From positions 28,088,001-28,152,000 of the forward strand of contig CM052816.1 in the NCBI GenBank assembly GCA_028534125.1: 64,000 bases of DNA, written 5' to 3'. Below are positions 5,244 through 47,795 of the stretch, one piece after another (positions within the stretch are counted from its first letter, which is position 1; each line of letters begins with the position of its first letter). Source of the DNA: Lama glama. Taxonomy: Eukaryota. The notes beneath the pieces were generated by a model. It searched no databases, was not told the origin of the DNA, and saw nothing but the letters and a program-made list of their open reading frames with translations. Made by a program: the position numbers and the translations under genes.

Positions 5244-8076
5244 CACTAGAAATGAAATCGAATTAGCAATAAAAAAACCTCTATACAAATAAAAGTCCAG
5301 GACCGGATGGCTTCACTGGGGAATTCTACCAAACATAAAAAGAAGAACTCATACCAGTCCTTCTCAAACTCTTCCAGAAGATTGAAAAGGAGGGAATACT
5401 CCCAAACTCATTCTATGAAGCCACCATCACCCTGACACCAAAACAAGGCAAAGACACCACCAAAAAAGAGAATTACAGACCAATATCACTGATGAACATA
5501 GATGCCAAAATCCTCACCAAAATATCAGCAAATCGAATCGAACAGCACATAAAAAAGATTATACATCATGATCAAGTGGGGTTCATCCCAGGGACACAAG
5601 GGTGTTTCAACATACGCAAATCAATCAAAGTACTACATCACATCAACAAGAGAAAGGACAAAAACCACAAGGTCATTTCAATAGATGCAGAAAAAGCATT
5701 TGATAAAATTCAACACCCATTTATGATAAAAACTCTCACCAAAGTGGGTACAGAGGGAACGTATCCCAACATCATAAAAGCTATATATGACAAACTACAG
5801 CCAGCATAGTACTCAATGGTGAAAAACTCAAAAGCTTCCCACTAAAATCTGGGACAAGACAAAGACAAGGCTGCCCACTATCACCACTCCTATTCAACAT
5901 AGTCTTGGAAGTCGTAGCCCAGCAATCAGGCAAGAGGGAGAAATAAAAGGGATCCAAAGTGGAAAAGAAGAGGTAAAAGTGTCACTATATGCCAACAACA
6001 TGTTACCATATATAGAAAACCCTAAAAGGTCCACACAAAAACTACTAGAGCTGATCGAAGAATTCAGCAAGGTACCAGGCTACAAGATTAACGTTCAACA
6101 ATCAGTTGCATTTCTTTACACTAACAATGAATCAGCAGAAAAAGAAAGTAAAGAAACAATCCCCCTTTAAAATAGCACCCAAAGTAATAAAATACCTAGG
6201 AATAAATCTAACCAAGGAGGTGAAAGACTTATACACAGAAAACTATAAACCATTGATGAAGGAAATTAAAGAAGGCTTAAAAAAATGGAAAGATATCCCA
6301 TGCTCCTGGATTGGAAGAAACAATATTGTTAAAATGGTCACACTGCCCAAGGCAATCTTCAGATTTAATGCAATCCCTATCAAATTACCCAGGGCATCTT
6401 TCACAGAACTAGAACAAATCATAATAAAATTTATATGGAACCACAAAAGACCTAGAATTGCCAAAGCATTACTGAAGAGAAAGAAAGAGGCTGGAGGAAT
6501 AACTCCCCCAGGCTTCAGACAAAACTATAGAGCTACAGTAAACAAGACAACATGGTATTGGTACAAAAACAGACATATGGACCAATGGAACAGAACAGAG
6601 AGCCCAGAAATGAACCCACAAACTTCTGGTCAGCTAATCTTCGACAAAGGAGGCAAGAATATACAATGGAATAAAGACAGTCTCTTCAGCAAATGGTGTT
6701 GGGAAAACTGGACAGCAGCATGTAAATCAATGAAGTTAGAACACTCCCTTTCACCATACACAAAAATAAACTCAAAATGGATCTAAGACTTAAACATAAG
6801 ACAAGATAGAATAAACCTCCTAGAAGAAAATATAGGCAAAACATTATCTCACATACATTTCAAAAATGTTCTCCTAGGGCAGTCTACCCAAGCAATAGAA
6901 ATAAAAGCGATAATAAATAAATGGGACCTTATTAAACTTACAAGCTTTTGCACAACAAAGGAAACCATAAAGAAAACAAAAAGACAACCTACAGAATGGG
7001 AGAAAATTTTTGCAAACGATGAAACTGACAAGGGCTTGATCTCTGGAATAAATAAGCAGCTCATAAAATTTAATCAGAAAAAAACAAACAACCTAATCCA
7101 AAAATGGGCAGAAGACCTAAACAAAAAATTCTCCAAGGAAAAAATACAAATGATCAATAGGCACATGAAAAAATGCTCAATATCACAAATTATCAGGGAA
7201 GTGCAAATCAAAACTACGATGAGGTATCACCTCACACCAGTCATATTGGCCATCATTCAAAAGTCCACAAATGACAAATGTTGGAGAGGCTGTGGAGAAA
7301 GGGGAACCCTCCTACACTGCTGGTGGGAATGCAGTTTGGTGCAGCCACTGTGGAAAACAGTATGGAGAGTCCTCAAAAGACTAGGAATAGACTTACCACA
7401 GGACCAAGTCATCCCACTCCTGGGCATCTATCCAGAAGGAACCTTACTTCAAAAAGACACCTGCACCCCAGTGTTCATAGCAGCACTATTTACAATAGCC
7501 AAGACATGGAAACAGCCTAAATGTCCATAAACAGATGCCTGGATAAAGAAGAAGTGGTATATTTATACAATGGAATACTACTCAGCCATAAAAACGACAA
7601 CATAACGCCATTTGTAGCAACATGGATGTCCCTGGAGAAAGTCATTTTAAGTGATAAAAGCCAGAAAGAGAAAGAAAAATACCATATGAGATCCCTCATA
7701 TGTGGAATGTAAAAAAAATAATCAACATAAATACAAAACAGAAACAGACTCATAGACATAGAATACAAACTTGTGGTTGCCAAGGGGGTGGGGGGTGGGA
7801 AGGGACAGACTAGGAATTCAAAATTTGTAGATACTGGAAGGCATAGGCAGAATAGACAAACAAGATTATACTGTACAGCACAGGGAAATATATACAAGAT
7901 CTTGTGGTAGCTCACAGTGAAAAACAATGTGACAATGAATATACATACGTATTTTCATGTATAAGTGAAAAATTGTGCTCTACACTGGAAATTGACACAA
8001 AATTGTACAAATGACTATAACTCAATAAACAAAGTTAAAAAATAAATTAAAAAAAATTGTTAAAATGAAAAAAAAA
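5244..8076 (+). mobile_element. 5'-truncated LINE-1 (young, camelid-type 3'UTR) with frameshifted ORF2 (RT and C-terminal CCHC region), 3'UTR and A-rich tail
   Basis: ORF-track peptides MNIDAKIL...[10 protein letters not shown]..., [15 protein letters not shown]..., [18 protein letters not shown] are L1 ORF2. The RT YADD motif has decayed to YANN. G-rich 3'UTR box at about 7784-7804, AATAAA at about 8024, then an A-rich tail. Confidence 0.97.
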
Positions 8077-10090: not shown

Positions 10091-13000
10091 CAATGGAGAT
10101 TTATTTTGTTTGCTAGGAAGGAAGACTCATTTAAGATAATGGCTCACCCATCTTATTCAGTACCTGAGACAGTACTTTGAATCTGGAAGCACGAAAAAAT
10201 GTGTTGGATTGAGTTGAAAAGCCTTCAAGATCATTAGGACTATGAACTCAGAAGTCAGCAAGCTGACCAAAGAGACAACACTTTAAGTAAAAAACAGGTT
10301 TCAATAAGATTCTTATCTTCTTCAATATAACCAAAAAGTTAGGATGCTAAGTCCTGGATGTTTAATAAACTCCTTCTAATAGCTGTAATATTTTCTCTAT
10401 TTCTCTTCTACAGAGTAAGCAGTAACTGTATCATTGTATCACTGTATTATAATCACTTGAAAAAAGGATTTTGAATGGCCTTTAATACTTGTAAATCTCA
10501 TTAATGTGCCCCTTTATTTTTAATTTTGTCTTTCCATAATCTAATAGACTATATTAGATAATCTAAGTATAAACTATTCACTATATTATCAAAGGAAAGA
10601 ATATAAACCTTTATTAACAGATAATGTGGTGGTGGTTTTTTAAACAAGACATGGTTGAGACTGACAGTCCTGTATGGTAATTATTTCACAAAGAAAGAAC
10701 ACAGATTATGTATTTCAAAAGTTAATCAATTATTTTTAGTAGATGCTTCCTAGTACTAAAATATCAATATTTAATATTAATTTTGCTGGCACTGATATTA
10801 CTGTAGTGTGTACCTTGCATACAATTTATCAGCCAGGTGCAACAAGGATGAGCAGCTTTGACAGGCATTTCCTGGGAGCTTAACTGAGGAAGACGTATGG
10901 CTGTAACAATCTTCATTTTTTTTTTCCAGATTGAAATTATGCCTGGCTAAACCATATGGCATAGAATTTTATAACCTTTATAATAATTTCATCTGTTCAT
11001 TTGAGCAGAGTCTAAGCAGTTACTTGAGGGGAATACTGACCCTATCCTTTTCACCTCTGTGTATGGTCTTCAGCACAAGGTTTTGTTAGTCTATGGGATC
11101 ATCAATCTCAACTCCAGTCAATAGTCTCTTGACGGGTGTGCGTGTTTATTCAGCAGAAGAGCTGCTGTTCACTCACCAGTCACTCCATCTTATTTAAGGC
11201 TCGGTTTGAGAGAAATCACCTGGAAAGTGAAAGGCTTGAAGTGTTTCATTTTTTACTTATTCAGATCAGCACCAGAGCAAGACCAGCATTCTCTCAGCCA
11301 CCTCCACCTGAAGCATTACTTATACTAAATTCGTTTGATATTATTTGGCTAGCTCATGCTGAAAGTCAGAATGAGAAATGGTCCCATGAAATCAGTACTT
11401 AAATATACTACATGGATGGGGGGGACAAACGTAATTTCTTTATGTTGTCGTCCCTTCCCTGTGGTCCCCTCTCCAAACCTATAGAAAAACTTCAAGACTT
11501 GGAGTGTTCTGGGGAGGGGAGGCAGGAAGTAAGGGTCCTCTGTGCTCTGCCCTCTGGTGGGGGTGGTCCTGACAGAGAGAACGTGGGGAGGGGAAGCCAG
11601 TAACTCCACCTGCAGAGGATGTGACACTGGCTGGGATGCCTGGGGAGGAGGTGCCCAAAGTCGGCTCTCCTCTGGGACCCACTTGGGGGCAGCATCCTGG
11701 GTGGGTGCCCAGGTCACGGCCAGGGACAGGGCACGCCCTTCCCCTCTCAGGCTGCTTACTGCAAGGCCCCATGCCCCACAACTTTCATCTCATTTCCTTA
11801 CTTTCATGTTAACACATTTTGTTTACATAGACCAGCAAGATAAATTCCCTATGTACTCAACACAACAATAAGAATTCATTGATAGACACAATCGCTTTGT
11901 GTCTATCTTTCAGACACTCTGGATTATATCCCTGGACAAGTTTCTCCTTTTTTGACTGCCTCTAAGAATGTGAGAGCCTAATTCTTGGCTCACACATCAA
12001 AGCATATGGGTCATTATGGCATGATCGTTAAGCATTACTCTGGACTTTATTACAAACTGCCTTCAAGTTTTTAAATTACTCCCTTAATTTTAGCACTCTT
12101 GTATGTTACGTACTCTTTTAAAGTGACATTTTCCCTGAATAGGTACATATGATATAAATAAAGTCAAATGATCATATTTACAACCTGTCAGATCATTTGC
12201 CCACAAAGTTCTCATCAATCCCCAAGCTCAACTGAGAGAGAAGGGTAGAGAAGGAAGAAGAGTCTATTATTTGCAGTCAGAAAGGTATATTCCTGAGACA
12301 TTATACCCAGGCTGAAAACTTCCCTGACTGCAGAGAACACTGAAATAGAAGCAAAGCTCATCATGGTCTGTCTAGTTACCAGTACTCCTCAGTATTCACA
12401 TGCAGGCCAGATGAAATAATGACCCAGTATTCAGATCACCTTTGCGTTTGTAATTACACACTTTCTCGTGGTACTTGAATGAGTGTTGATATTGTCACAA
12501 CTAATAACCATGAATAAAAACCAAATACTCAAAATGGATCTGCTATTTTTTAATTTGTGGTTATGGGGATGGGGAGTGAGTCACAAGAAAAGATACCTAC
12601 AAGGGCCAGCAAGGTGATGAAATAAGTGAACTTTGGCAGAGTTTGTGGTTAAATGGAAAGAGTGCAGGTTGGAATTTATCTTAGAATGATCGATACCATC
12701 TGGAAATAAGAACCCTAACACGGCTGATTATCCTGCCAGAAATGTGTCAATTTTCAGAAGACGTCAAATGATTTCAAAAGTATTTTAAAAATTAAAAGTG
12801 CTACGCAGGCCAAGGAAACAGCCTGCCAGTCTATGAATTTTAGTTTAAAATGTATATAAATACTCCAAAGACAGCTTGTGTTTTTTAAATAAAACCCAGA
12901 ACATTTTCAAAATAGCTCTTGGATTTAGATTGCACAGCAAATCATGAAGAGCTTAAAATATTTGTATTTGTGTAGCCATATATATATTCAATAATTCATT

Positions 13001-22133: not shown

Positions 22134-22346
22134 GAGGGTGGGAAGGGATAGACATGATTTCAAAATTGTAGAACAGATAAACAAGATTACACTGTATAGC
22201 ACAGGGAAATATACACAAGATCTTATGGTAGCTCACAGAGAAAAAAATGTGACAATGAATATATATATGTTCATGTATAACTGAAAAATTGTGCACTACA
22301 CTGGAATTTGACACAACACTGTAAAATGATTATAAATCAATAAAAA
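22134..22346 (+). mobile_element. Severely 5'-truncated L1 (3'UTR only) with a perfect 12-bp TSD
   Basis: Homologous to about 7795-8030 of the L1 at 5244-8076. TSD AAAGAACCAGCA at 22122-22133 and 22347-22358; target TT|AAAG matches the L1 endonuclease consensus. Confidence 0.95.
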
Positions 22347-25006
22347 AAAGAACCAGCAATGTCTCAAAGTCATAAAAATTATAATCAGTTTTATGAGCTC
22401 AGTCTCTTATAATTAATTCTTGTTCTGCTTGATCATGGGTTAGCAGCTTTATGAATCAATCAGTTTTCCAGAGTTTAGAAATTCTTATCCTAGTCAAGGA
22501 TATGAATTTAAAGTTATCAGAAGCCTATATTCTAGAGTATTTGTCAGGGTCTTTTCCATGGATCTCTGAAGATAAAGAATTTCAGCCTGTAGTTGAATAG
22601 AAATGCTTTGAGAGAAGAATAAAGAGTAAAACAATAACTGTGAGTGACAAAAATACTTAAAAATAGTCATGGTTTAAGAGCTGGTGAGAGTCCACCAAAA
22701 AAATGATGCAACTGACCATCAAATTTTTATTTTTGTGATATTCAGTACTGTACAATAATAACTGATTATGATTCATAACAATACACTATGACATATCATA
22801 TTTTTAGGAATTTTATATAATTTGGAATCATTCATTTTAATAATATATATGCCATATAAATGTTACCTAAGAAGTTTAAGTATTACTTTTTATTTGACAT
22901 TTCTCACACAATTTAATGTGTCAATTAAGTCTAAATAAAATAACATTTCTCTTTTTATAAGGTGAGAGAGCAAGTCTTAGGACCTCCCGGAGACCCTCTG
23001 GAAAATCCCACGGTTACTTTAAGGTCAAAAACTTCACTCAGAATTTGATTTGGGAAAACTTGTTAAAAACATCAAAAAGTTTAAACCTTGATCAAATAGG
23101 AACCTAAGTTACTGTGAAACAATACTTAGCTATCCATTCAACCAAAATGATGATGAAAGATACCAAAGGCAAATACAGAAAAGTTACATAGCTGTAAAAA
23201 ACCTTAGCTCTTTTAATATTTAAAAGATAAGGTTTTTTTAAGTAACCAAAGACCTGATAATGAAAATGTGCATAAGGCACACCTATGTTTTCTAAAACAT
23301 AGGATATTTATTTCCTGGGAAGATTATATTAAAAGCCAAAAAAACAAACAAACAAAACAACCCAAAAAACCTCTCTTTACAATCTAAATTAAAAGACAAT
23401 TAAACTTATTTTGTACAAGACATTATTGAATCTCATTTTTAAAACCCTTATAAATAAACCTATTTAATTTAGCCAACCTTGACCTCAAACATAAAATTTC
23501 TTTCTCATGAATCATCCACAGCTTTCTGAACCCATTTAACTTCTGTCTTATTCTTTTCCTTTTTTATTTTGGAACAACCAGTCATTTTGTTTTAGACAAC
23601 ACTAGTCTCTTTTTCCTTAACAAAAACCCATCACATATTCCTTGCATACTCTTCATATATATATATACACAACCTATTTTCTTCCCATACCTTGTGTACA
23701 AAGTGGTTTCCCTTCACTCTTATTGTTTATAGTAGTTGTACTTTTACATATTGATTATATAATTTAACTATTAATAATCTTTATTTTCCAATGAAAGCTA
23801 GGGAGCAGGCAATTGTGAGCTATCCTATATTAGCATCCTATAGTAGATTAGCAAATGTGTATTATAAAACTTATACTTTTTAGAGACATGTCTTTTATAA
23901 TACAACTTTTCACATGGCATAAATGTATTTATTCATAGACCCACACATCTTTTGTTTCTCCATGAAAAATCAAAAAGTCAAAGGTAGACAAATTTAAACT
24001 TATGTTCAGCAATTAATGTCTCAGTAAATTATCTTATTTGGGAATAATCTAGATATTCAATGAATATCCATTATTTAGTTTAACTTAGTATAAATTTTAC
24101 CTTTCTTACATTTATTTAAATTACTTATTTCTAACACTAATGCTTAGAATAGACATCAAACTGCTAACAATCATCTTAAAGTATTTTTTTATGTTCATAA
24201 ATTTTGTAACATAGAGATCACATGAGCTTATTTGACTAGAAAATTCAGGTAGAAAAAGTTGTATGTTCACATTACATTTAATACTGAGAATTTTGAAGAC
24301 AAGCCTGATTTTTAAACCAACAAACTTAAATTAGCTTTTATTTATCAAAGATTATTCCAGATCATGTGCATTTGATATTTAGGTTAGTTTCTCTGTTTGA
24401 GTTTTAGGAATACTGAATTTAGATAAGCCCTTATTTTTAAGCCAATTAAATAAAACTGATTTAAAATATAATTTATACATGATATACAAACATACATAGA
24501 TACACATAAACATACAGACACAGAGATCTCATAGTTTTCATTTTAAAATTTTAACCATGTTTCAGGTACAATAATGCAAAACTCAACAGAATAGCTGAAA
24601 CCAAATTGGGTTTATGGCAGATGGACTAAGTTACGGTTACCTCCTCAGATGGCCAAATATTTTTACTGAAGTTTTCATTCACATGATATATGGATTTCTT
24701 TAAAGAGAAACTATTTTTGGAGTCATTTGTCTTTTAGAAGTTTCTGCATACCAATCAAAGAGTGCATTCCACAGCATCTCCTAGAGGTTTGAGATCTTTC
24801 TTATCAAGGGTGCGCCTTAAGGTTAAAGTTTCCCCAAAGTGGCCACTGTAATTCCAAATTATCCAAAAGTTCACCCATTTTTTAAACAGGCACAAGATTC
24901 TGGTACATGGCAGATATACCTCCAAGAAGCTGTTTTTCAAAGAGATGGAGAAAGAGTTTTAGACCGGGTGGCACCCATCTTTGTCTTTAGAGTCCCTTGA
25001 CATCTT

Positions 25007-25255
25007 TTTTCTTTTTCAGTTGAGGTATAGTCACTTACAGTGTGTCAATTTCTAGTGTACAGCATAATGTACCAGTCATGCATACATACATATATATATA
25101 TGTGTGTGTGTGTGTATATACACACATACATATATTCTTTTTCATATTCTTTTTCATTAAAGGTTATTACAAGATATTGAATACAGTTCCCTGTGCTATA
25201 TATAAGAAATTTGCTTTTTATCTGTTTTTATATATAGTGATTAACCCTTCCAAAT
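25007..25255 (-). mobile_element. Short L1 3'UTR insertion with an internal (TA)n(TG)n microsatellite
   Basis: T-rich tail at the left; 'gttattacaagatattgaatacagttccctgtgctata' is the reverse complement of L1 3'UTR sequence also seen near 41550-41600. Near-TSD CCTTGACATCTT / CCTTACACATCTT. Confidence 0.9.
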
Positions 25256-25596
25256 CCTTACACATCTTAACTTTGAAGGACCCTGTTTTCAATTAGCTGT
25301 GTCAAGACACAGGGACTCATGAGTTTCTCACTACCCGACCCCTTTAGGACAGAATAGGGTGGCATACCAAAAACCTTCAACAAACAAAATACAGGTATGA
25401 AAATAAAGTCAGAGAACTCTAAACACAAGGAGAGTGGAACTCAAATCCAAGACAGACTTACCCTCAGATTCCAGAGTTGGTAAGAAGGCCATGACTTAGT
25501 GGGCTCTGTGGGTACAGGCACCTGGGTGCTCGCTATCCTCAGTCATTGGCTGGGGGGACGGGGTCGTCTTTAAATCTTACTTCTAAAGACAGGACC

Positions 25597-33600: not shown

Positions 33601-33793
33601 GTATATACAGATATGTTACAGTTTAATTGCTCATAGAAGTGAGGGTTTATTTTCGGGCTCTCTATCCTGTTCCACTGGTTTACATGTCTGTATTTGTGTC
33701 AGTACCATACTGATTTGATTACTGTAGCTGTGTAGTATAGTTTGCAATCAGGAACATAATACCTACAGTTTGTTCTTTCTCAAGATTGTTTTG

Positions 33794-36230
33794 TCCAACA
33801 ACACATAACAAAGATCATACACTATGATTACGCTGAATTCATCCTAGGGTCATAAGGATGCTTCAACATTATCAGTCAATCAATGTGATACACCACTTCA
33901 ATAAAAGAAAGGACAAAAATTACAAGATAACCCAACAGATGCAGAGAAAACATTTGCTAAAATTCAACATCCATTCATGATAAAAACTCTTATGAAAGTG
34001 GGTATAGAGGAGACATATCTCAACACAATAAAAGCTATTTATGACAAACCCACAGCCAGCATAATACACAATGGTGAAAAGTCAAAAGCCTTCCTATTAA
34101 AATCTGGAACAAGACAAGGATGCCCACTATCACTACTTTGATTCAACATAGTACTGGAAGTTCTAGCCATATCAATTAAACAAGGAAAAGAAATAAAAGG
34201 AAGGGAGGAGGTAAATATGTCACTATATGCAGATGATATGATAACTTCATATAGAAAACCCTAAAGATTCCACACAAACACTACTAGAGCAGATAAAAGA
34301 ATTCAGCAAGGTAGCCGGATACAAGATTAACATACAGAAATCAGAGTAACATACAGAAAGAAATGTATTTCTTTACATTAACAATGAAATACCAGAAAAG
34401 GAAAGTTTAAAAAATCCATTTAAACTTGAATCAAAAAATAAAATACTTAGCAATAAACCTAACCAAGAAGGTGAAAGACTTACATGTAGAGAACTATACA
34501 ACACTGATTAAGGAAATTAAAAATGATTTAAAGAAATGGAAAGATATCCCATGTTCTTGGATTGGAAGAATTAATGTTGTTAAATACTGCCCAAAGCAAT
34601 CTATGGATTTAATGTGATCTCTTTCAGATTACTCAGGACATTTTTCATGGAACTAGGGAAAAAAACCTTAAAATTTATATATAATCACAAAAGACCCAGA
34701 ATTGCTAAAGTAGTACTAAGGGAGAGGAATGAAGCTGGAGGTATAACTCTCCCAGAGTTCAGACAATCCTACAAATACTACAATAATCAAAAGAGTGTGG
34801 TATCGGCACAAAAACAGACATATGGATCAGAATAGAGAGCCTAGAAATACACCCACACATCTACAATCAATTAATCTTCAAGAAATGAGGCAAGAATATA
34901 CAGTGCAAAAAAACAGTCTCTTTGACAACTGGTGTTTGGAAACCTGGACAGCTGCATGTAAATCAATGAAGTTAGAACATTCCCTTACAGCATACACAAA
35001 AAATAATCTCAAAATGGCTTAAAGACGTAAACATAAGACAAGACACAATAAAACTCCTAGAAGAGAATATAGTCAAAAGATTCTCTGATATAAATTGTAG
35101 CAATGTTCTCCTAGGGCAGTCAACCCAGGCAATAGAAATAAAAGCAAAAACAAACAAATGGGACCAAATTAAACTTATAAGCTATTGCCTAACAAAGGAG
35201 ATCACAAACAAATGAAAATATAACCTACAAAATGGGAGAAAATATTTGCAAATGCTGTGACTGACAAGATCTTAATTTCCAGAATACACAAAAAGCTCAT
35301 ACAACTCAGTAACAAAAAAAACCCCAAACAATCTAATAAAAAAAAAGGACAGAAGACCTAAACATTTCTCAAATGAAGGCATATAGATGGCCCATAGGCA
35401 CATAAAAGGTGCTCAATATCATAATTATCAGAGAAGCGCAAATCAAAACACTTCACACCAATCAGAATAGCCATCATTAAAAAGTCCACAAATGATAAAT
35501 CCTGGACAGGGTGTGGAGAAAAGGGAACCCTCCTACACTGTTGGGAATGCAATCTGGTGCAATCACTACAGAGAACAGTATGGAGATTCCTTAAAAAACT
35601 AAAGACAGACTGACCATAAGATTCAGCAATCCCACTCCTGGGCATACGTACAGAGGAAACTCTAATTCAAAAAGATGCATGCATCACAATGTTTCTATCA
35701 GCACTATTTACAATAGTCATGGCATGGAAATAACCTGAATGTTCATCAACAGATGACTTGATAAAGAAGATGTGGTATATATATACAATGGGATACTACT
35801 CACTCATAAAAAGAATGAAATAATGCCATTTGCAGCAACATGGATGGACTTAGAGGTTATCATACCACGTAAAATAAGCCAGAGAAAGACAAATATATCA
35901 CTTACATTTGGAATCTAAAAAAAAAAAAATGACACAAATGAACTTACTTACAAAACAGAAACAGAAACATAAATATACAAAACAAACTTATGGTTACCAA
36001 AGGTGAAAGGTGGGGGAGGGATAAATTAGGAGTTTGGGATTTTCAGATACTAACTACTATATATAAAACAGAAAAACAACAAGGTGTACTGTATAGCAGA
36101 GGGAACTATATTCAGTATCTTAAAATAAAATATAATTTTAAAAAATATATATAACAAAATCACTATGCTATACACCAGAAAGTAACACAACATTGTATAT
36201 ACTTCAATGCTATACTTCAATAAAAAGTTT
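33794..36230 (+). mobile_element. 5'-truncated LINE-1 nested in an older L1
   Basis: ORF2 remnants ([14 protein letters not shown]...[17 protein letters not shown]-coding 'tatgcagatgatatg'), 3'UTR and AATAAA tail. Near-TSD AAGATTGTTTTG (33782-33793) / AAGAAGTGTTTTG (36231-36243). Confidence 0.95.
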
Positions 36231-37209
36231 AAGAAGTGTTTTGATTATTCAGGGTCTTCTGTTTTCCATACAAATATAAAATTCCTTGTTAGGTCTCTGA
36301 AATGTGTCATTGTAATTCTGATGGAATTTGACTGAATCTGTAGATTGTCTTGGGTAGTATGATCATTTTAACAGTATTAATTTTTCCAGTCCATAAGCAT
36401 GATATATCTTTCCATTTGTTTGTATCATTTTCAATTTCTTTCACTGGAGTCATATAGTTTTCTGAATACAGGTTTTTTTTAACCTCCTGCGTTATACATA
36501 TTCTGAGGTGTTTTATTCTCTTTGATGCAACTGTAAATTGGAATGTTTCCTTAATCTCTTTTTCTGATAATTTGTTGTTAGTGTACAGAAATGCAACAGA
36601 TTTATGTGTATTAATTTTCTATCCTATAACTTTATTGAATTCATTTATTAATTCTAATAATTTTTCTGGTATGTTTAGGATTTTCTGTATATGGTATGTC
36701 ATCAGCTAATAGTGACAATTTTACTTCTTCCTAATTTGGATTCATTTGATTACTTTTCTTTTTTGGCCTGGTTGCTGTGGCTAGGACTTACAATATTATA
36801 TAATATATGTAACAGAAATGGCAAGAATGGGAATACTTGTCTTAATCTTAGGGGAAATGCTTTTCACTATTGAATATGATGTGGCTATAGGTTTGTCATA
36901 TATGGCCTTTATTATGTTGAAGTAAGTGCCCTCTATACTAACTTTATAGAGAGTTTTTGGTCGAAAGTTAAATTGACAAAGGTATTCTGCATTTATTGAG
37001 ATGATGGTAGTATTTTTATTCTTCAATTTGCTAGTGTGGTGTAGCACACTGACTGATTTGTAGATCCTTGTATCCATCCTTGTATCCCTGGTATAAATCT
37101 CACTTGATCATGGTTTCTGAACCTTCTAATGTATGGCTGAATTTGGTTTGCTAATATTTTGTTGAGGATTTTTGCATCTACCTTCATCAGTGATACTGGC
37201 CTATAATTT

Positions 37210-37298
37210 TCTCCTTTCCTTCCCTTCCCTTGCCTTCCCTTTCCCCTTCCCTTCCCTTCTCTTCCCTTTCCTTTCCTTTCCTCCCTTCCTTCCTTCCT
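37210..37298 (+). repeat. Polypyrimidine (CCTT/CCCTT/CTTT)n low-complexity tract inside L1
   Basis: Directly visible; it lies where the L1 has an A-rich stretch on the sense strand. Confidence 0.9.
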
Positions 37299-37714
37299 GT
37301 GATATCCTTGTCTGGTTTTGCTGTCAGTGTAATACTGGCTTCACAAACTGGAAGTTTATCTTCCTCTTCAATATTTTGAAAGAGTTTGAGAAGGATAGCC
37401 CTTAATTCTTTAAATGTAGACAAAATTCACACGTGACACCACCTGCTTCTGGAATTCTGTTCTTTGGGAGTCTTTTTATTATCAATTCAATTTCACTACT
37501 GGTAATTGGTCTATTTATATTTTGTATTCCTTTCTGATTCAGTCTCACGAGATTGTACATTTCTAGGAATTATTATATTTTTAATAACAATTAGTCCATT
37601 AGTAAAAATATGTTTATAAAAACCAGCCTTTAAATCTACTCTGAATAAGAACAACAGAAATTGAAAAATTAGGTGAATTTATTTTGCTTTACAAATATTA
37701 TCTATTAAAAATGG

Positions 37715-40480: not shown

Positions 40481-41720
40481 TTAAGACAATGTGAACCTTC
40501 TAGAAGAAAACATAAGCAAAACATTTTCTGACATAAATCTTAGCAATGTTCTCCTAGGGCAGTCTACCCAGGCAACAGAAATAAACCTAAAATACACTAA
40601 TGGAACCTAATTAAACTCATATGCTTTTGCACAGCAAAGGAAATTATAAGCAAAACAAAATGACAACCTATGGAATGGGAGAAAATATTTGTAAATGATG
40701 CAACTAACAAAGGTTTAATTCCCAGAATATATAAACACCTCATAAAACTTAGTAAGAAAAAAACAAATAATCCAATCCAAAAATGGGCAGAAGACCTAAA
40801 TAAGTGATTCTCCAATTAAGACATACAAACGGCCAATAGGCACATGAGAAAACGCTCAATATCCCTAATTATCAGAGAACTGCTAATCAAAACTACAATG
40901 AGGTTATCACCTCACACCAGTCAGAATGGCTGTCATTCAAAAGTCCACAAACAATAAATGCTGGAGAGGGTGTGGAGAAAAGGGAACTCTCCTACACTGT
41001 TGGTGGGAATGTAGTCTGGTGCAGCCATTATGGAAAACAGTATGGAGATTCCTCAAAAGACTAAAAACACACTTACCATATGATCCAACAATCTCACTCC
41101 TAGGCATATACCCAGAGGAAACTAATTTGAAAAGATACTTGCACCCAATGTTCAAAGTAGCACTATATACAATAGCCAAGACATGGAAGCAACCTAAAGG
41201 ACTACTCGGCATGTGTATATTTATACAATAGAATACTACTTGGCCATAAAAAGAATTAAATAATGCCATTTGTGTCAACATGGGTGGACCTGGAGATTGT
41301 CATTCTAAGTGAAGTAAGCTAGAAAGAGAAAGAAAAATACCATATGATATCACTCATGTGTGGAATAAAAAAAGAGAAAAAAGAAAAAAGAGGACACTAA
41401 AGAACTCATCTACAAAAAAGAAACAGACTTGCAGACATAGTAAACAATATTATGGTTATCGGGGGAAAGGGAGTGGGAAGGGATAAACTGGGAGCTCGAG
41501 ATTTGCAAATATTAACTACTATATATAAAAATAGATAAAAACAAATTTCTTCTGTATAGCACAGGGAACTATATTCAATACCTTATAATAATCTTTAATG
41601 AAAAAAGAATATGAAAATATATGTATATATATATGCATGACTAGGACATTAAGCTCAACAGAAACTGACACACTGTAACTGATTATACTTCAATAAAAAT
41701 TATAGAAATATTAAAGGAAA
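40481..41720 (+). mobile_element. 5'-truncated LINE-1 (ORF2 C-terminus and 3'UTR)
   Basis: Peptide [34 protein letters not shown]-rich box 'ggggaaagggagtgggaagggataaac'; AATAAA at about 41692. No convincing TSD. Confidence 0.95.
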
Positions 41721-42796
41721 AATTTTTCATATCTGAAAAGAATAAGACTTTTTTGGGACAGCAACATTACCCTAAGTCTAAATAAATAAAACCAAATTAC
41801 TCAGTGATTTTGATTTTACATCACAAAGGATTTTTTTTAAAATCTTTAATCACTCTCTTCACTCCTATAAAAAAAAATTGCCTCTTCCAGTGTCAACTTC
41901 AGTAATCTGCCAGTTAGAAATTTGTGATGACAATAAACTATTTTCTCTGTTTAAGGATAATACAAAATGAGAATATCATGCCACACAAAATATTATTATA
42001 GTAAGAAAATCTATGAACAGTGCTTGGCAGAGAATCTGGTACATTGCAAACCTCAGTGAATACTTTTTCCATTTCCTTTATTAAATACTCTTGTTAATGT
42101 AGTTGCTCCAATCTTTGCTATTTTTTTTAATGACTTCTCAGAAGTCCAAATCTTCTTTTTTCAAATAACTGAAACCTTGATTAGAATACATTAAGCCCTG
42201 GAAGATTTAGGATCATTTCAAGATCATAACTGAGCTTAAAAGCTAATTCTGTACAAACTTCAATTACAATTGAAATCCATTATGAAATTGCTCTCTGAGA
42301 AAAAACATATTTATACACACACATATATACGCATATAAATAATAGTATAAATATGGCAAAAAATTCATTTTTTGAAAAAAGTTGATAAACTGCAGTATAA
42401 AAGCCATTTTGTTGGAACACATAAGATAATCAACTAACAGTGCTCTTAATTTTTCCAATGTAATAGAGCAAGTAAGAGAAACATTACTAGCAATGTACTT
42501 CTCAGATCCACAATTTTGAGAGTGGAAATTTTAAAAATATAGCTTCTCTATTTAATCATATTCACCTATTTCTTTGATTTTTTTTTCTTTAGCACTTCCT
42601 CTGTCCAGCCTGACTTTCTGACTTATTTTAAGCACTGTAGAGTTTAACTTCTCAAAAATAGTTTAAACACAGGACATCTTATTTTGTTTACGTATTTCCA
42701 TAAATTCTAATGTAATAAAGGGATCTTACCTTTATTTGTAATTTTTTAGGGAAATAATGACTGCCTCAAAAAGTCAAGTTCAAGTTTCAATTATTC

Positions 42797-43576
42797 ATTT
42801 TTTTAAATGAAATACAGTTGATTTACAATGTTGTTAGTTTCTGGTATACAGTATAGTGATTCAGTTATACATATATATTATTTTCATATTCTTTTTGGTT
42901 ATATATTATTATAAGATATTATAAGAAAATAGTTTCCTATGTTATACAGCTGGATCTTGTTTATCTGTTCTGTATATAGTACTTTGTATCTGCTATTACA
43001 AACTCCCAATTTATCCCTTCCCCAAGTCTTTTTCCCCTGGTAACCATAAGTTTGTTTTCTATGTCTGTGAGTTTGTTTCTGTTTTGTAAGTTCATGTCAT
43101 TCTTTTAGATTCCACATATAAGTGATATCATATTTGTCTTTCTCTGTCTGACCTATTTTACTTAGACTTACATCACTTAGCAATCTCATTCCTGGGCATA
43201 TATCTGGAGAAAATTCTAATTTGAAAAGATACATGCACCCCAATGTTCACAGCAGCACTATTTACCATAGCCAAGACATAGAAGCAACTCAAGAACCCAC
43301 TGACAGATAACTGGATTAAGATGTGCCATATATATATATCTTTAATTCAAGGATGGAAAGAGCCTGGAAACAAACAAAAGACTTCAGCCTAAGTGACATT
43401 TGAACACCACCTTTGCTTCATGGACTTCCCTCTGGTGTCACCTGTGATTAACAACAGCTACTCAGAACTCCCTGAGTACAGATCATATATATATGATGGA
43501 ATACTATTCAGACACAAGAAAAAATGAAATAATGCCATTTGCAGTAACATAGATGGACCTACGGATTGTCATACTA
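42797..43576 (-). mobile_element. 5'-inverted (twin-primed) L1 insertion with TSD
   Basis: poly-T at 42798-42804, antisense 3'UTR to about 43165, then a sense-oriented upstream L1 segment at 43179-43576. TSD AAGTTTCAATTATTC (42782-42796) / AAGTTCAATTATTC (43577-43590). Confidence 0.92.
43339..43486 (+). repeat. 148-bp copy of 45017-45164 inserted in an L1 (TA)n tract
   Basis: Direct comparison shows 2 mismatches in 148 bp. Confidence 0.97.
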
Positions 43577-43859
43577 AAGTTCAATTATTCTTGATCTCTG
43601 CTCCTTGGACCCTCAGCTTCTGTGTTAAGAAGCTGATAATGAAAGTGCTTTAGTTGAAAGGCTATTACATGGTAAATCAGGGGACCAGGTTTCTACTTCC
43701 AAATGGAATATGGACTACCTGTTTGACCTTGAAGAAGCACAAACTATCTTTGAACCAAAATTTTATGATTTATAGAAAGGGGATTCTATTATATTACTAA
43801 TAAAACTTCCAATTCCAAAAATGTATTTTAGATTACCAACTACTGTCTAAGCATGGTTG

Positions 43860-44460
43860 CAGCAGAATTTCTCAAACTCTGCTGTTGTGAATGTAAGTTG
43901 CTAAAACCATTTCAGAAATCAATCTGGCATTACCTTATAAAGTTGAAGATGTACAGTGTGATTCAGTAATCCACATCCCAGAGAAACTCGTCCACATGTG
44001 AATGGAGAGGGTCATATAAGAATGCTCACAATAGTGATATGTTCTATCCCAAAGTTAAAACAACATTCCTCTGTAAGCAGAGTAATGAAAATAGTTTGCA
44101 CAGAGGACTGAAAAAGTAAATGAGTCACAACGGGACACTTTAATATGGATATATCTCAAAAACATAACATTTAAAGAGAAACAAGTCACATACAGCCTGA
44201 TTCTACTTCAACAAAGAAAGCAAAATGAGTGCTATTATTTAAGGCACACATACTTGTACTAAACTATAACCAATACCAAAGACTGATTATTACAAAATTC
44301 AAAATAATGTGTAACTCTGAGGTGGAAGGAAGAGGATGTAATTGATGAAGAGTGCACAGGGGGCTTCTAATTTCTATTTCTTAAGTTGAATGTCAGGTAC
44401 AGAGGACACTTACACTATCCATTAAATTATATCTAAATGTTATATATACCCTCTTCATTT
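43860..44460 (+). mobile_element. L1ME/L1MC-like 3' end
   Basis: 'gaatgtaagttgctaaaaccatttcagaaatcaatctggcattacc...aaagttgaagatg...ccagagaaactc...ggatatatctcaaaaacataa...gtgcacagggggcttcta'. Confidence 0.7.
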
Positions 44461-45016
44461 TTGAAGTTTGAAAATTACTATGTCTAAGATGGCTAAATGA
44501 TTGCTGTCATTTCTGCTGAACACAGAAGTCTTTCTGAAAACACATGATTGATTGACATTTGCAGAATCCTCATTACCCCTGTAAATGATGAGAGTAGAGT
44601 CATGTGTAATTTTTATTCTGTTGAGGAAGCAAAACATCCACGAACCCTTCCCAAGGTTTTATTTTTGCCTTTGGCCTTGGTGGCCATCAGAATGACACTC
44701 AATCTCTTCACCACTGGTTTAAAGTGCTTCTAAAACCACATTCATAATTAATCATCCTTGTTTGTTTACCTAAGCAGCTTATCTGCCAATGACAGCAATG
44801 GCAGCTAGGATAAATGAAATTCTCACTTAAGCAGTTCAACTGAGCAAGCCCCACCCACTGGCCTGGTGCTGGAGAAATACCCTCTCTCTGCTTGTTCCTA
44901 TTTGAAAAGGTGACTAAGGTTCTTCTTTTAAACTCTTAATTCAAAGGTAGTATTGCTGAATAATTTTAGTTCTAACTCTGAAACACCTTTTATTATTTGG
45001 AACATCATTTTAAAAG

Positions 45017-45164
45017 TCTTTAATTCAAGGATGGGAAGAGCCTGGAAACAAACAAAAGACTTCAGCCTAAGTGACATTTGAACACCACCTTTGCTTCATG
45101 GACTTCCCTCTGGTGTCACCTGTGATTAACAACAGCTACTCAGAACTCCCTGAGTATAGATCAT
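45017..45164 (+). repeat. Presumed donor copy of the 148-bp duplication
   Basis: Near-identical to 43339-43486; embedded in apparently unique flanking sequence. Confidence 0.95.
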
Positions 45165-45854
45165 CATATGAAACATTTAACAGAAATATGAGCTAACTAT
45201 TTTTGAGTTCAAGGAAATCTCTACAGATAAGAAACTATCCCCCCCCCCCGATAACATATCAAATTTCTACTGTCAGAATTATGGTCCTTTAAGACTGAAC
45301 AAATCTTGCTCTCTCACATAGGCAGTTACCATCAGCAATACTGTCATTAGTGCCAGTTAAAATAATTACTGAGATGTAAAGAAAAGGGCTAAAGATAGGT
45401 ACAAAGCATCAGTCAGTTCATACATTCAGACTCTCAAAATCTTAATTGATGTTAAGTTTTTATACAAATAGTATTTTGCTTTTTAGCAAGGACAAGTTTG
45501 GGTGCCTTCTATGATTTGGGCAAATACAAATATTGAAAGTCTCCAGGTCAGTGTGACCTGGAAGGGCCTAGGTGAGCATTGCTGGGGCAACACAATGTCT
45601 TTTTTGCTAGGGTGAGACATGAGGCTGGAGAGATGGGTCAGAATATGGCCATAGAAATCAGAGAGAAATCATAAAAAATACTTCTTTTAGGAAGAAGCAG
45701 CAGGAAAATGGAGAAATTTATAGATGGATAAGTCTTTCCCATTTATCCAAATTTTTTAAGATTGGTTTCAATTAAAAAATGACTCTTCTTGAGAAAGATG
45801 ACCAAAGTGAAATCAGTATGAAATACTTGCACCTTTTCTGCCATTTGTTAACAC

Positions 45855-46170
45855 TTATGGAGTGAAAGACAAAACTAAAGAGATGATTTTGTTCAGGTTA
45901 AAGCAATAGAGAGAACATTCATTAATAAAGAAGATCTTAAAGAAAAGGAAACAGGCCTGGGTGTTACAGAGGCTGGGAAACAAGAGAGTCATCCAAGAGT
46001 CTGGTGGGAGTCAAGAGGAAGAATGGAAACGGTCCTGTCTGGGAATATGCAAGGGCAGGGTGCTCTTTACTGTCACACTGTCCCAGAACCCAGGATAGGC
46101 AGATTTTGTAAGTGTTGCTACTTTCTGGGACCCCAGGGCTCAGATAAAGTTGAGCAATGCCCCCAGTAAT
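45855..46170 (-). mobile_element. Possible old LTR fragment
   Basis: Purine-rich LTR-like text ending 'tttctgggaccccagggctcagataaagttgagca'; family not assigned. Confidence 0.3.
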
Positions 46171-47795
46171 AATGACAAAATAATATTGAGAATGACTGAA
46201 CGTTCACTCTGATATTAGAACTACTTACAACCTACTAGGCACATGGCTTACACTATGGACTGTAAATCTATAAAACATGTGTACTGTGCTTCAGTTTCTC
46301 CTCGTTAGGGAGCATCCTGCCTAATGTCTGGGCACACTCATGCAAGCTCGTGTTCCACTACGTGCTGCTACTAAGTTTGCATCCCGTATTTCAAAGATAC
46401 ACAGAACAGAAGCCACCAGCCCTCAACTTACAGGTAGAATGTATCACAATAAATATTTGCTGTTGTGAGTCACTAAGACGTGTAGGTTATTTATTCAAAA
46501 AAACAAAAAACTCTTTTGTTTCCCATCATAATACTATTTAGTGCTTATCAAACTGAAACTTCCTGCACTTCATGGCTATGCTTTAAGTGTACAGGGTCCT
46601 AACATCATTACTTCATCTAAATAGGTCCTTTAGGCAGCACTCTCCACCCCAGGGTTTTTCCAAAGCTATCAAACTACTTGCCTTTTGTAAATCATTGTTC
46701 AAATTTATTGGGTTATTGTTTTGTTGATTCATCATTCTAAATAGAACGCAGGGGTGAATGGCTGAAAACTGCTTAGTTAACTTCTCAGAACATATCTGCA
46801 TTTTGAAGAAAGCTTTCACTTATTTATTATAAAAGAGTGAATATGTGGGCAGTTAGGTGCTTAAGCAAAACGGACATTCACTGTAAGTGGAGGCTTTGTG
46901 AACTTCAGATTATAAATTCGAGTCACCTGCCTCTAATGTCTGCATGTTTAAATCCATTTTCAAAGAAAAAAAGTAAAACACACTTCTGATTTAAAAGTGA
47001 GCATTTCAGCATAATAAAGAGTAACAAAATAACATTCAACCGGTCTCATTTTAAAATAGATACATAATTAAATCAAAACTGTCAATCATACTTCATTTCG
47101 GGTTATAATATAGCTATATAACTACGTCATTGTATTTTTTAGTGCATGAAAGTTGGGAAGAAAGATCTTTTAACCTTCAAATTCATTGGACTCTTAGCAT
47201 AAACCCAAGGTAACCTAGATATGGGAGATAGGTTAAGTTCATATTTGTGGCTGTTTTCATGATCACATTAGAAAAAATTTCTTATTTCTTTCATGATTGT
47301 TCTACATGGAATCCTTTTCTGAAGTCATTCACACAGTTTAACTTCAGAATAACTGATTCATTCTTCTGATACACTTGAGGTATGAATACCAATTTGGAAA
47401 GCTTAGCCTTCAAAAGAAAAAGTAAATGCTGACATTACATTAAAATCTTCGCTATTTGTGGTCAAGTGCTTAACGAATTTCTGGTTATTTTTATTTCAGA
47501 GACTTGTCAGGTAGATGCCAGCCAACTGTTGGCAAAGCACAAAGGAATTTGGAAATGCGTGTTCAAGTACAACCTAATCTAATTACTCTTGACATCGTCA
47601 GAAAATGTCTTTCATAATACACTTGAGAGACAGCCCGGCTTATGTAGAATACATGTAAAGCAAACCACTTTCCTTTCATGTATTATTATACAAATCTTAC
47701 TACAATTGTGGAAATATTTTACAAAATGCCATAGAACAGTGTTGTATATGTTCAGTTTTTTGAATGTCACCCTTGAACAAGTCTGCCTATCCTAC

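Follow-up and report, generated by a model that had tools for sequence, protein, structure and literature searches.

The window analysed here, a 64-kb stretch of DNA (33.6% GC, no N) with several decayed LINE-1 (L1) fragments, contains the same 148 bp twice, once inside an L1 fragment and once a short distance downstream, and the question raised by this locus is how the duplicate came to lie within the element. The two stretches, 43339-43486 and 45017-45164, are identical in 146 of 148 columns in direct orientation (self-BLAST E value of 4e-69), with an offset of 1678 bp and a gap of 1530 bp between them, which bears out a sequence-only reading of this DNA that had reported a match with 2 substitutions in the same orientation 1.68 kb upstream. 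The upstream stretch is referred to below as the acceptor or copy and the downstream one as the donor. Their two mismatches are A/G at 43357 and C/T at 43479 (copy versus donor, in copy positions), and the stretch between these differences is, at 121 bp, the longest exact direct repeat of the window among those 50 to 5000 bp apart. The match is not due to chance, because the longest comparable direct repeat in dinucleotide-block shuffles was at most 18 bp in 20/20 cases. Searched sensitively against the 64-kb window, the donor found the acceptor as its sole strong match, with a runner-up of 30 bp (E value of 0.025), and the donor neighbourhood (44701-45500) had no other match in the rest of the window at an E value of 0.01. 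The donor (plus strand) is thus single-copy within the window, as well as non-coding and devoid of CpG. The insert likewise has no CpG and has stop codons in all six frames. It contains no poly(A) (its longest A run is 4 and its longest T run 3) and no terminal repeats, both as claimed earlier, nor AATAAA on either strand, while one ATTAAA is found on its minus strand, 2 nt from the end. A search of Rfam with 44800-45400 gave no match at E values up to 1.

The donor-bearing unique stretch is real DNA. When the stretch 43600-46500, which contains the donor and excludes the acceptor, was compared with runs by word share, values of 0.87 to 0.99 were obtained in 20 of the 24 runs listed; the other four rows, with word shares of 0.00 to 0.03, are evidence neither way. 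Without three runs that are possible sources, 17 runs from 7 studies and under 5 organism labels remain. The test covered this stretch only, and the upstream copy lies outside of it. A word share of 0.87 implies, crudely, a divergence of about 0.45%. With divergence this low, the insertion may well predate the sampled populations and be common to them, which is a prediction. A 30-base donor pattern had 0 matches in metagenome contigs, a search that is uninformative for a mammalian locus, and no look-alike windows by place, sequence or relatives were present in the index of scanned windows.

The direction of copying is given by the L1 around the upstream copy. Three other L1 copies in the window, at about 7.5, 35.8 and 41.2 kb, are uninterrupted at the insertion point, as had been noticed before. 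The flank quoted for them at the time (gtggtatat...acaatggaatact) is exact for one of the three and only approximate for the other two. The upstream copy (43339-43486, plus strand) breaks the collinearity of the element, and because it splits an L1 that is continuous in 3/3 other copies it is, on this alignment, the derived copy. Left of the insert, 43179-43338 (plus strand) corresponds to the ORF2 C-terminal region with two stop codons, is 73-86% identical to the three L1 copies, and matches the ORF2 frame of the 7-kb copy at 69% over 39 aa (tblastn, E value of 5e-14). Right of the insert, 43487-43577 (plus strand) carries one stop codon and one extra base and is 77-82% identical to the same three copies. 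The L1 resumes across the insert with little shift in register, from 35785 to 35777 in the coordinates of the 35-kb copy and from 7549 to 7559 in those of the 7-kb copy.

Both of these pieces belong to the inverted 5' segment of the host L1, an inversion that is absent from the earlier account. The non-inverted 3' segment (42798-43172, minus strand) matches the three other copies at their 3' ends (71-74% identity, opposite strand), and a short residual poly(A) is seen as T7 at 42798-42804 on the plus strand. The element has its own target-site duplication (TSD), at 42782-42796 on the left and 43577-43590 on the right (plus strand), the copies agreeing in 14 of 15 columns with one indel. An inverted 5' segment at one TSD and a 3' segment with poly(A) at the other meet at about the same L1 position, with an overlap of about 10 bp when placed on the 41-kb copy (41298 versus 41308). 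The host fragment is about 0.65 kb long, its ORF2 remnant has 3 stops, and the 148-bp insert is located within the inverted segment, about 90 bp in. The host (42782-43590) reads clearly as a complete, 5'-inverted and dead twin-primed L1 insertion. The L1 label is based on DNA similarity and on a PDB match of the 7-kb copy, the frame 6787-7527 of which corresponds to residues 966-1214 of human ORF2p (E value of 2.5e-96), which marks the window as mammalian DNA; Pfam searches with 7 of the 26 window ORFs of at least 100 aa returned 0 families. The L1 3' ends in the window have what we take to be a camelid-like or cetartiodactyl look. In human, 18% of germline L1 insertions are twin-primed, and these have a median cDNA overlap of 12 bp and a median TSD of 13 bp (PMC12016303); the host is alike in its inverted 5' segment, its overlap of about 10 bp and its TSD of 14-15 bp. 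The twin-priming model, as described in PMC12016303, accounts for the host only, and the 148-bp patch would be a later addition.

The junctions of the insert provide details of how it was made. On either side of the insert stands one copy of an 11-bp direct repeat, CATATATATAT (43327-43337 and 43484-43494, plus strand), and the first three bases of the right copy, CAT (43484-43486), are also the last three of the donor. This is the right-junction microhomology that had been pointed out earlier, and the chance of CAT from the window base frequencies is about 0.02. On the left, a single A at 43338 (plus strand) is a 1-nt filler, or else part of one slipped AT unit, the T of which is common to the first donor base; leftward past 43338, no identity extends into the donor flank. 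The first base of the acceptor and its last 2-3 bases are common to the host sequence, and because of this the donor-only core is 43340-43483. Each side of the insert has one AT run of native length, 43328-43339 (12 bp) on the left and 43485-43494 (10 bp) on the right. In the three other L1 copies, the spacing between the TGTG/AGTG and ATGG/ATAG anchors on either side of this run is 13, 12 and 13 nt. With one CATATATATAT copy kept, 13 nt would separate the anchors in the host, which is the spacing of two of the three other copies (the third has 12), whereas taking out the 148 bp alone would leave 22 nt (13+9). The event likely duplicated a native five-unit TA run, giving an 11-bp target duplication together with 3-bp microhomology and 1-nt filler. 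As the repeat is of low complexity, its reading as a target-site duplication is likely and not proven. The description of the target as an expanded (TA)n run does not survive this comparison, and none of the nine AT runs of at least 10 bp in the window exceeds 13 bp; nor does the claim that the insert has no TSD of its own sit well with the flanking 11-bp repeat. A run that had already slipped to about (AT)10 and was then cut in two would yield identical letters, and only the matching C (frequency of about 0.17) and the anchor spacing argue against it.

The donor end (45159-45171) consists of a CATCAT tandem followed by ATGA. The longest words common to the right junction are CATAT at 45165 and ATATGA at 45166, and the right microhomology could have been 5-6 bp (CATAT, 5 bp) if the CATCAT of the donor gained, or the copy lost, one unit. 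A C11 tract at 45239-45249, 75 bp past the right end of the donor, is the sole C/G homopolymer of at least 9 in the window and could stall synthesis. In the 41-kb copy (41194-41216), a gap of about 20 bp immediately precedes the TA run at which the host is interrupted, which puts another lesion next to this motif, possibly by chance.

The copy and the L1 that it interrupts differ in age. Divergence between copy and donor is 1.4% (2 of 146; 95% CI of 0.17-4.9%), compared with 12.3% private change in the host (16 of the 130 columns that are identical in the three other copies), a figure that may overstate the age of the host, the three comparators being mutually 20-24% apart and maybe from other subfamilies. 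The two divergences differ significantly (Fisher p=3e-4), and the copy is, by this measure, far younger than the host L1, in line with the earlier claim that it is recent. The host-private changes are spread 2/4/4 over the codon positions (p=0.67), with only 10 changes to count. At 2.2e-9 per site per year, the rate used by Pace et al. (PMC2671141), a rough date of copying is 3 Myr (0.4-11), and at 1e-9 it is 7 Myr (0.9-24). The ages make it very unlikely that the patch was captured as the L1 inserted, barring later gene conversion.

The combination of a split element and a nearby donor has a close precedent. Repair-mediated duplications (RDs) are the subject of a survey by Pace, Sen, Batzer and Feschotte (2009, PMC2671141), who looked for transposable elements interrupted by an insert for which there was only one donor. 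In human, 824 of 1,136 cases had a donor within 5 kb, with a peak in distance at about 1.2 kb and a median length of 147 bp; cow, dog and mouse gave 202, 192 and 266 cases, respectively. Among the proximal RDs inspected in that work, poly(A) was seen in 0/39 and any TSD in 6/39, with none in 33/39, and microhomology plus TSD, with or without filler, occurred in 5/39. The ranges reported are 2-9 nt for microhomology, 1-68 nt for filler and 4-21 nt for TSD, and Table S1 holds a near twin of 91 bp with a donor 1,512 bp away, a 13-bp TSD and 3/2-bp microhomology (PMC2671141). The present locus is alike in that a transposable element is interrupted, without loss of register, by an insert that reaches the 50-bp minimum and has one donor less than 5 kb away, here 1530 bp, and its 148 bp stands next to the class median of 147 bp. 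It lacks poly(A), and its microhomology, filler and TSD are all inside the RD ranges, which places it in the minority of RDs with a TSD (6/39; PMC2671141).

Held against the definition of the class, the same element in the same orientation is found on both sides and resumes within 30 bp, as judged against the window copies instead of a consensus; the insert is longer than 50 bp (148 bp), and its gap to the donor (1530 bp) falls between the limits of 50 bp and 5 kb; no poly(A/T) tract of 5 bp or more occurs at its ends (A run 4, T run 3); and the junctions show CAT microhomology, a 1-nt filler and an 11-bp direct repeat. As to signs of a nested transposon, retrogene or transduction, no further window copy, Rfam match or open frame was found, these sources standing in for a repeat library. 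With these four features present outright, and the uniqueness of the donor judged within the window, the locus is very probably a member of the RD class. The host genome is apparently outside the mammals surveyed for RDs, as far as can be told from PMC2671141. A limited search for later work on RDs found nothing more specific than PMC2671141, and later work may exist.

The 148-bp copy is probably, at roughly 60%, a repair-mediated duplication after a germline break, made by an SDSA-like process. The existence of two copies, the direction of copying, the anatomy of the junctions and the contrast in age are shown by the sequence, whereas the break, its stagger, the end that primed, the pathway and its enzymes are inferred. 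The break would have occurred in the germline within the native CATATATATATG palindrome, long after the twin-primed L1 fragment had inserted and decayed. In its simplest form it would have been staggered by about 11 nt, with the TA run kept on both ends. The right-side 3' end (ATG on the minus strand) would then have annealed by 3 bp to CAT at 45162-45164, using a template 1.5-1.7 kb away on the same molecule, the sister chromatid or the homologue. After extension by about 145 nt, the primed end would have come off its template and been connected to the left end via the 1-nt filler or one slipped AT unit, so that an SDSA-like reaction would have been closed by end joining. The donor would stay intact after copying. 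No function of the patch is indicated.

Several other routes to the same arrangement have to be weighed against break repair. It is possible, with a lower probability that still deserves attention, that the nascent strand left the TA run during replication, jumped 1.68 kb, copied 148 nt and re-annealed by CAT, an out-and-back template switch in which the TA run is copied twice and a two-ended break is unnecessary. FoSTeS and MMBIR are type names for such replication template switching. Break repair and a replication template switch should, from the letters, give the same product, and the switch provides the 11-bp duplication and the direct orientation without an assumed staggered cut; template switching has also been invoked for short germline insertions at meiotic breaks (PMC7615360). 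Its drawbacks are that one of the two switches would have had only 0-1 nt of homology and that a strong fork-stalling structure is absent at the site, where the flanked AT runs fold at -0.3 and -2.9 kcal/mol. In addition, Pace et al. (PMC2671141) assign the class to SDSA, an assignment made from hallmarks and without a genetic test. The retrotransposition-linked routes fare far worse and are the most improbable of those considered here. In these, ORF2p would have switched to a local template during synthesis of the inverted segment, or the 148-mer would itself be retroposed or mobile (a class 1 templated sequence insertion polymorphism or TSIP, a short SINE or a MITE). In their favour, the insert is about 90 bp into the inverted part of a twin-primed L1 and is flanked by a TSD-like repeat. 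Co-insertion, though, would be expected to leave copy and donor diverged by near twice the L1's own change, and 2 or fewer differences in 146 would have a probability of 1e-15 for a rate double the private one, and of 1e-6 for the private rate itself. The insert also lacks poly(A), AATAAA on either strand and terminal repeats, and its target is a TA run and not TTTT/A, while a mobile family is opposed by the finding of no further copy in the 64 kb, no Rfam match and no look-alike in the index of scanned windows. The proposal made from the letters of a local, non-transposition copy at a break or template switch is supported by the direction of copying, the junctions, the age contrast and the shuffles.

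An assembly or sequencing artefact, in which a chimeric read or misjoin put a second 148-mer in the L1, is improbable. The acceptor is known from this assembly alone, from which both junctions of the upstream copy (43339, 43486) are taken, but the window is without N, the copies differ at 2 sites, the L1 continues in register across the insert, where a short target repeat is present, and collinearity is kept in every unique flank; moreover, 10/10 human-specific cases found in the same way were confirmed by PCR (Pace et al., PMC2671141). Slightly more doubtful still is a two-step origin, in which the 1.68-kb unit 43327-45164 was tandemly duplicated via CAT and about 1.53 kb was then deleted from the first copy. 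This would end in the identical sequence, with the duplicated TA run and CAT junction included. It requires two events, however, and the independent deletion must begin within about 12 bp of the duplication boundary, which has a chance of about 0.7% for a uniform breakpoint.

Other known systems share parts of this anatomy. The 'doublets' of Thomas et al., short local duplications for which imperfect break repair was proposed, have many attributes of RDs, but the surveys dealt with identical or near-identical duplicons below 100 bp, compared with 148 bp here (as described in PMC2671141). A class 2 TSIP (Onozawa and Aplan 2016, PMC5110952) is similar in that a copied patch, with microhomology but no poly(A), marks the repair of a germline break. 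TSIP templates are distant, and class 2 is described there as lacking a TSD; the template here is 1.5 kb away and a TSD-like repeat is present, which sets the locus apart from that class. Class 1 TSIPs require a TTTT/A site as well as poly(A) and its signal (PMC5110952). The locus has a direct repeat longer than the 5-bp minimum for a class 1 TSD (11 bp, low-complexity), but neither a poly(A) tail nor a signal 10-30 nt upstream, as no AATAAA is present, and its target is a TA run in place of TTTT/A.

Polymerase-theta templated insertions (TINS) are similar in that copying is primed by microhomology at an AT-rich, microhomology-poor break (PMC7165422). They are 3-30 bp insertions from flanking DNA, single tracts are rarely above 10 bp and distal templates account for less than 0.1% of repair (PMC7165422), so that a classic event of this type is rejected on size and distance for one 145-nt tract from 1.5 kb. 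Polymerase theta could have sealed a junction here. Of the repair pathways named in the sequence-only reading, SDSA-like repair and template switching both remain good fits, while polymerase theta-mediated end joining is a poor one, as the typical insertion of this kind does not resemble the patch. That reading had also explained the site by the break-prone nature of (TA)n tracts. Fragile AT repeats that form cruciforms have more than 22 units (PMC12972899), compared with 5-6 units per side here, or at most about 11 summed, and (AT)5 and (AT)6 both fold at 0.0 kcal/mol, compared with -9.5 kcal/mol for (AT)20. A fragile expanded tract is therefore rejected, and the rationale falls with it.

The event is most likely a routine break-repair scar of a class that was catalogued in 2009 by the same split-transposable-element logic (PMC2671141). 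The RD density in cow is 0.20 per Mb of transposable-element DNA (PMC2671141), which for a 2-Gb genome with an assumed 40% of such DNA corresponds to about 160 RDs, or about 0.5% of 64-kb windows, and at this density genome scans should meet RDs regularly. The locus is a tidy example of the RD minority subtype with a target duplication and could serve, to a modest extent, as a presence/absence marker of its lineage that is clean and poor in homoplasy. A bolder idea, which we consider a long shot, is that the TA palindrome near the ORF2 end of mammalian L1s (CATATATATATG, 5 units) breaks repeatedly in the germline, with the two cuts offset by about one helical turn; the idea comes from one locus, which cannot show it, and 5 units are far below cruciform length. 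If true, the 3' overhangs, being self-complementary, would not be religated easily and would serve as primers for copying from nearby CAT or CATAT, and TSD-bearing RDs would form a separate sub-pathway that, in many mammals, concentrates on this one position of the L1. If RD acceptors did cluster at this palindrome, germline break sites could be predicted from the positions of a very common repeat. Copying bounded by nucleosomes, a thought raised by the 148 bp here and the class median of 147 bp, was rejected, as the published RD lengths show no excess of that size. In the first part of Table S1 (PMC2671141), lengths looked peaked at 130-169 bp, but 308 held-out rows contained 58 in this range against 59.8 expected from a log-normal fit (p=0.63), and the lengths of 377 of the 824 rows, copied by hand, fit a log-normal distribution (KS p=0.54).

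The remainder of the window holds further traces of L1 activity. A nested pair occupies 33635-37503, where an older minus-strand L1 (33635-33744 and 36229-37503) is split by a plus-strand L1 at 33794-36200. The older pieces are collinear in the coordinates of the 7-kb copy (6627-6516 and 6476-5245), and a 7-mer common to 33787 and 36237 may be what remains of a target duplication. A (CCTTC/CCTTT)n polypyrimidine microsatellite of about 90 bp (37208-37297) lies inside the older L1. A search for tRNA genes in the 64-kb window gave 0. The relatively GC-rich stretch 11349-11871 contains several overlapping stop-free frames of 101-146 codons, two of which were scanned without a Pfam match. Short L1 3'-end fragments are found at 22170-22348 and 25005-25256, and the latter, on the minus strand, has an internal switch of orientation near 25100-25130.
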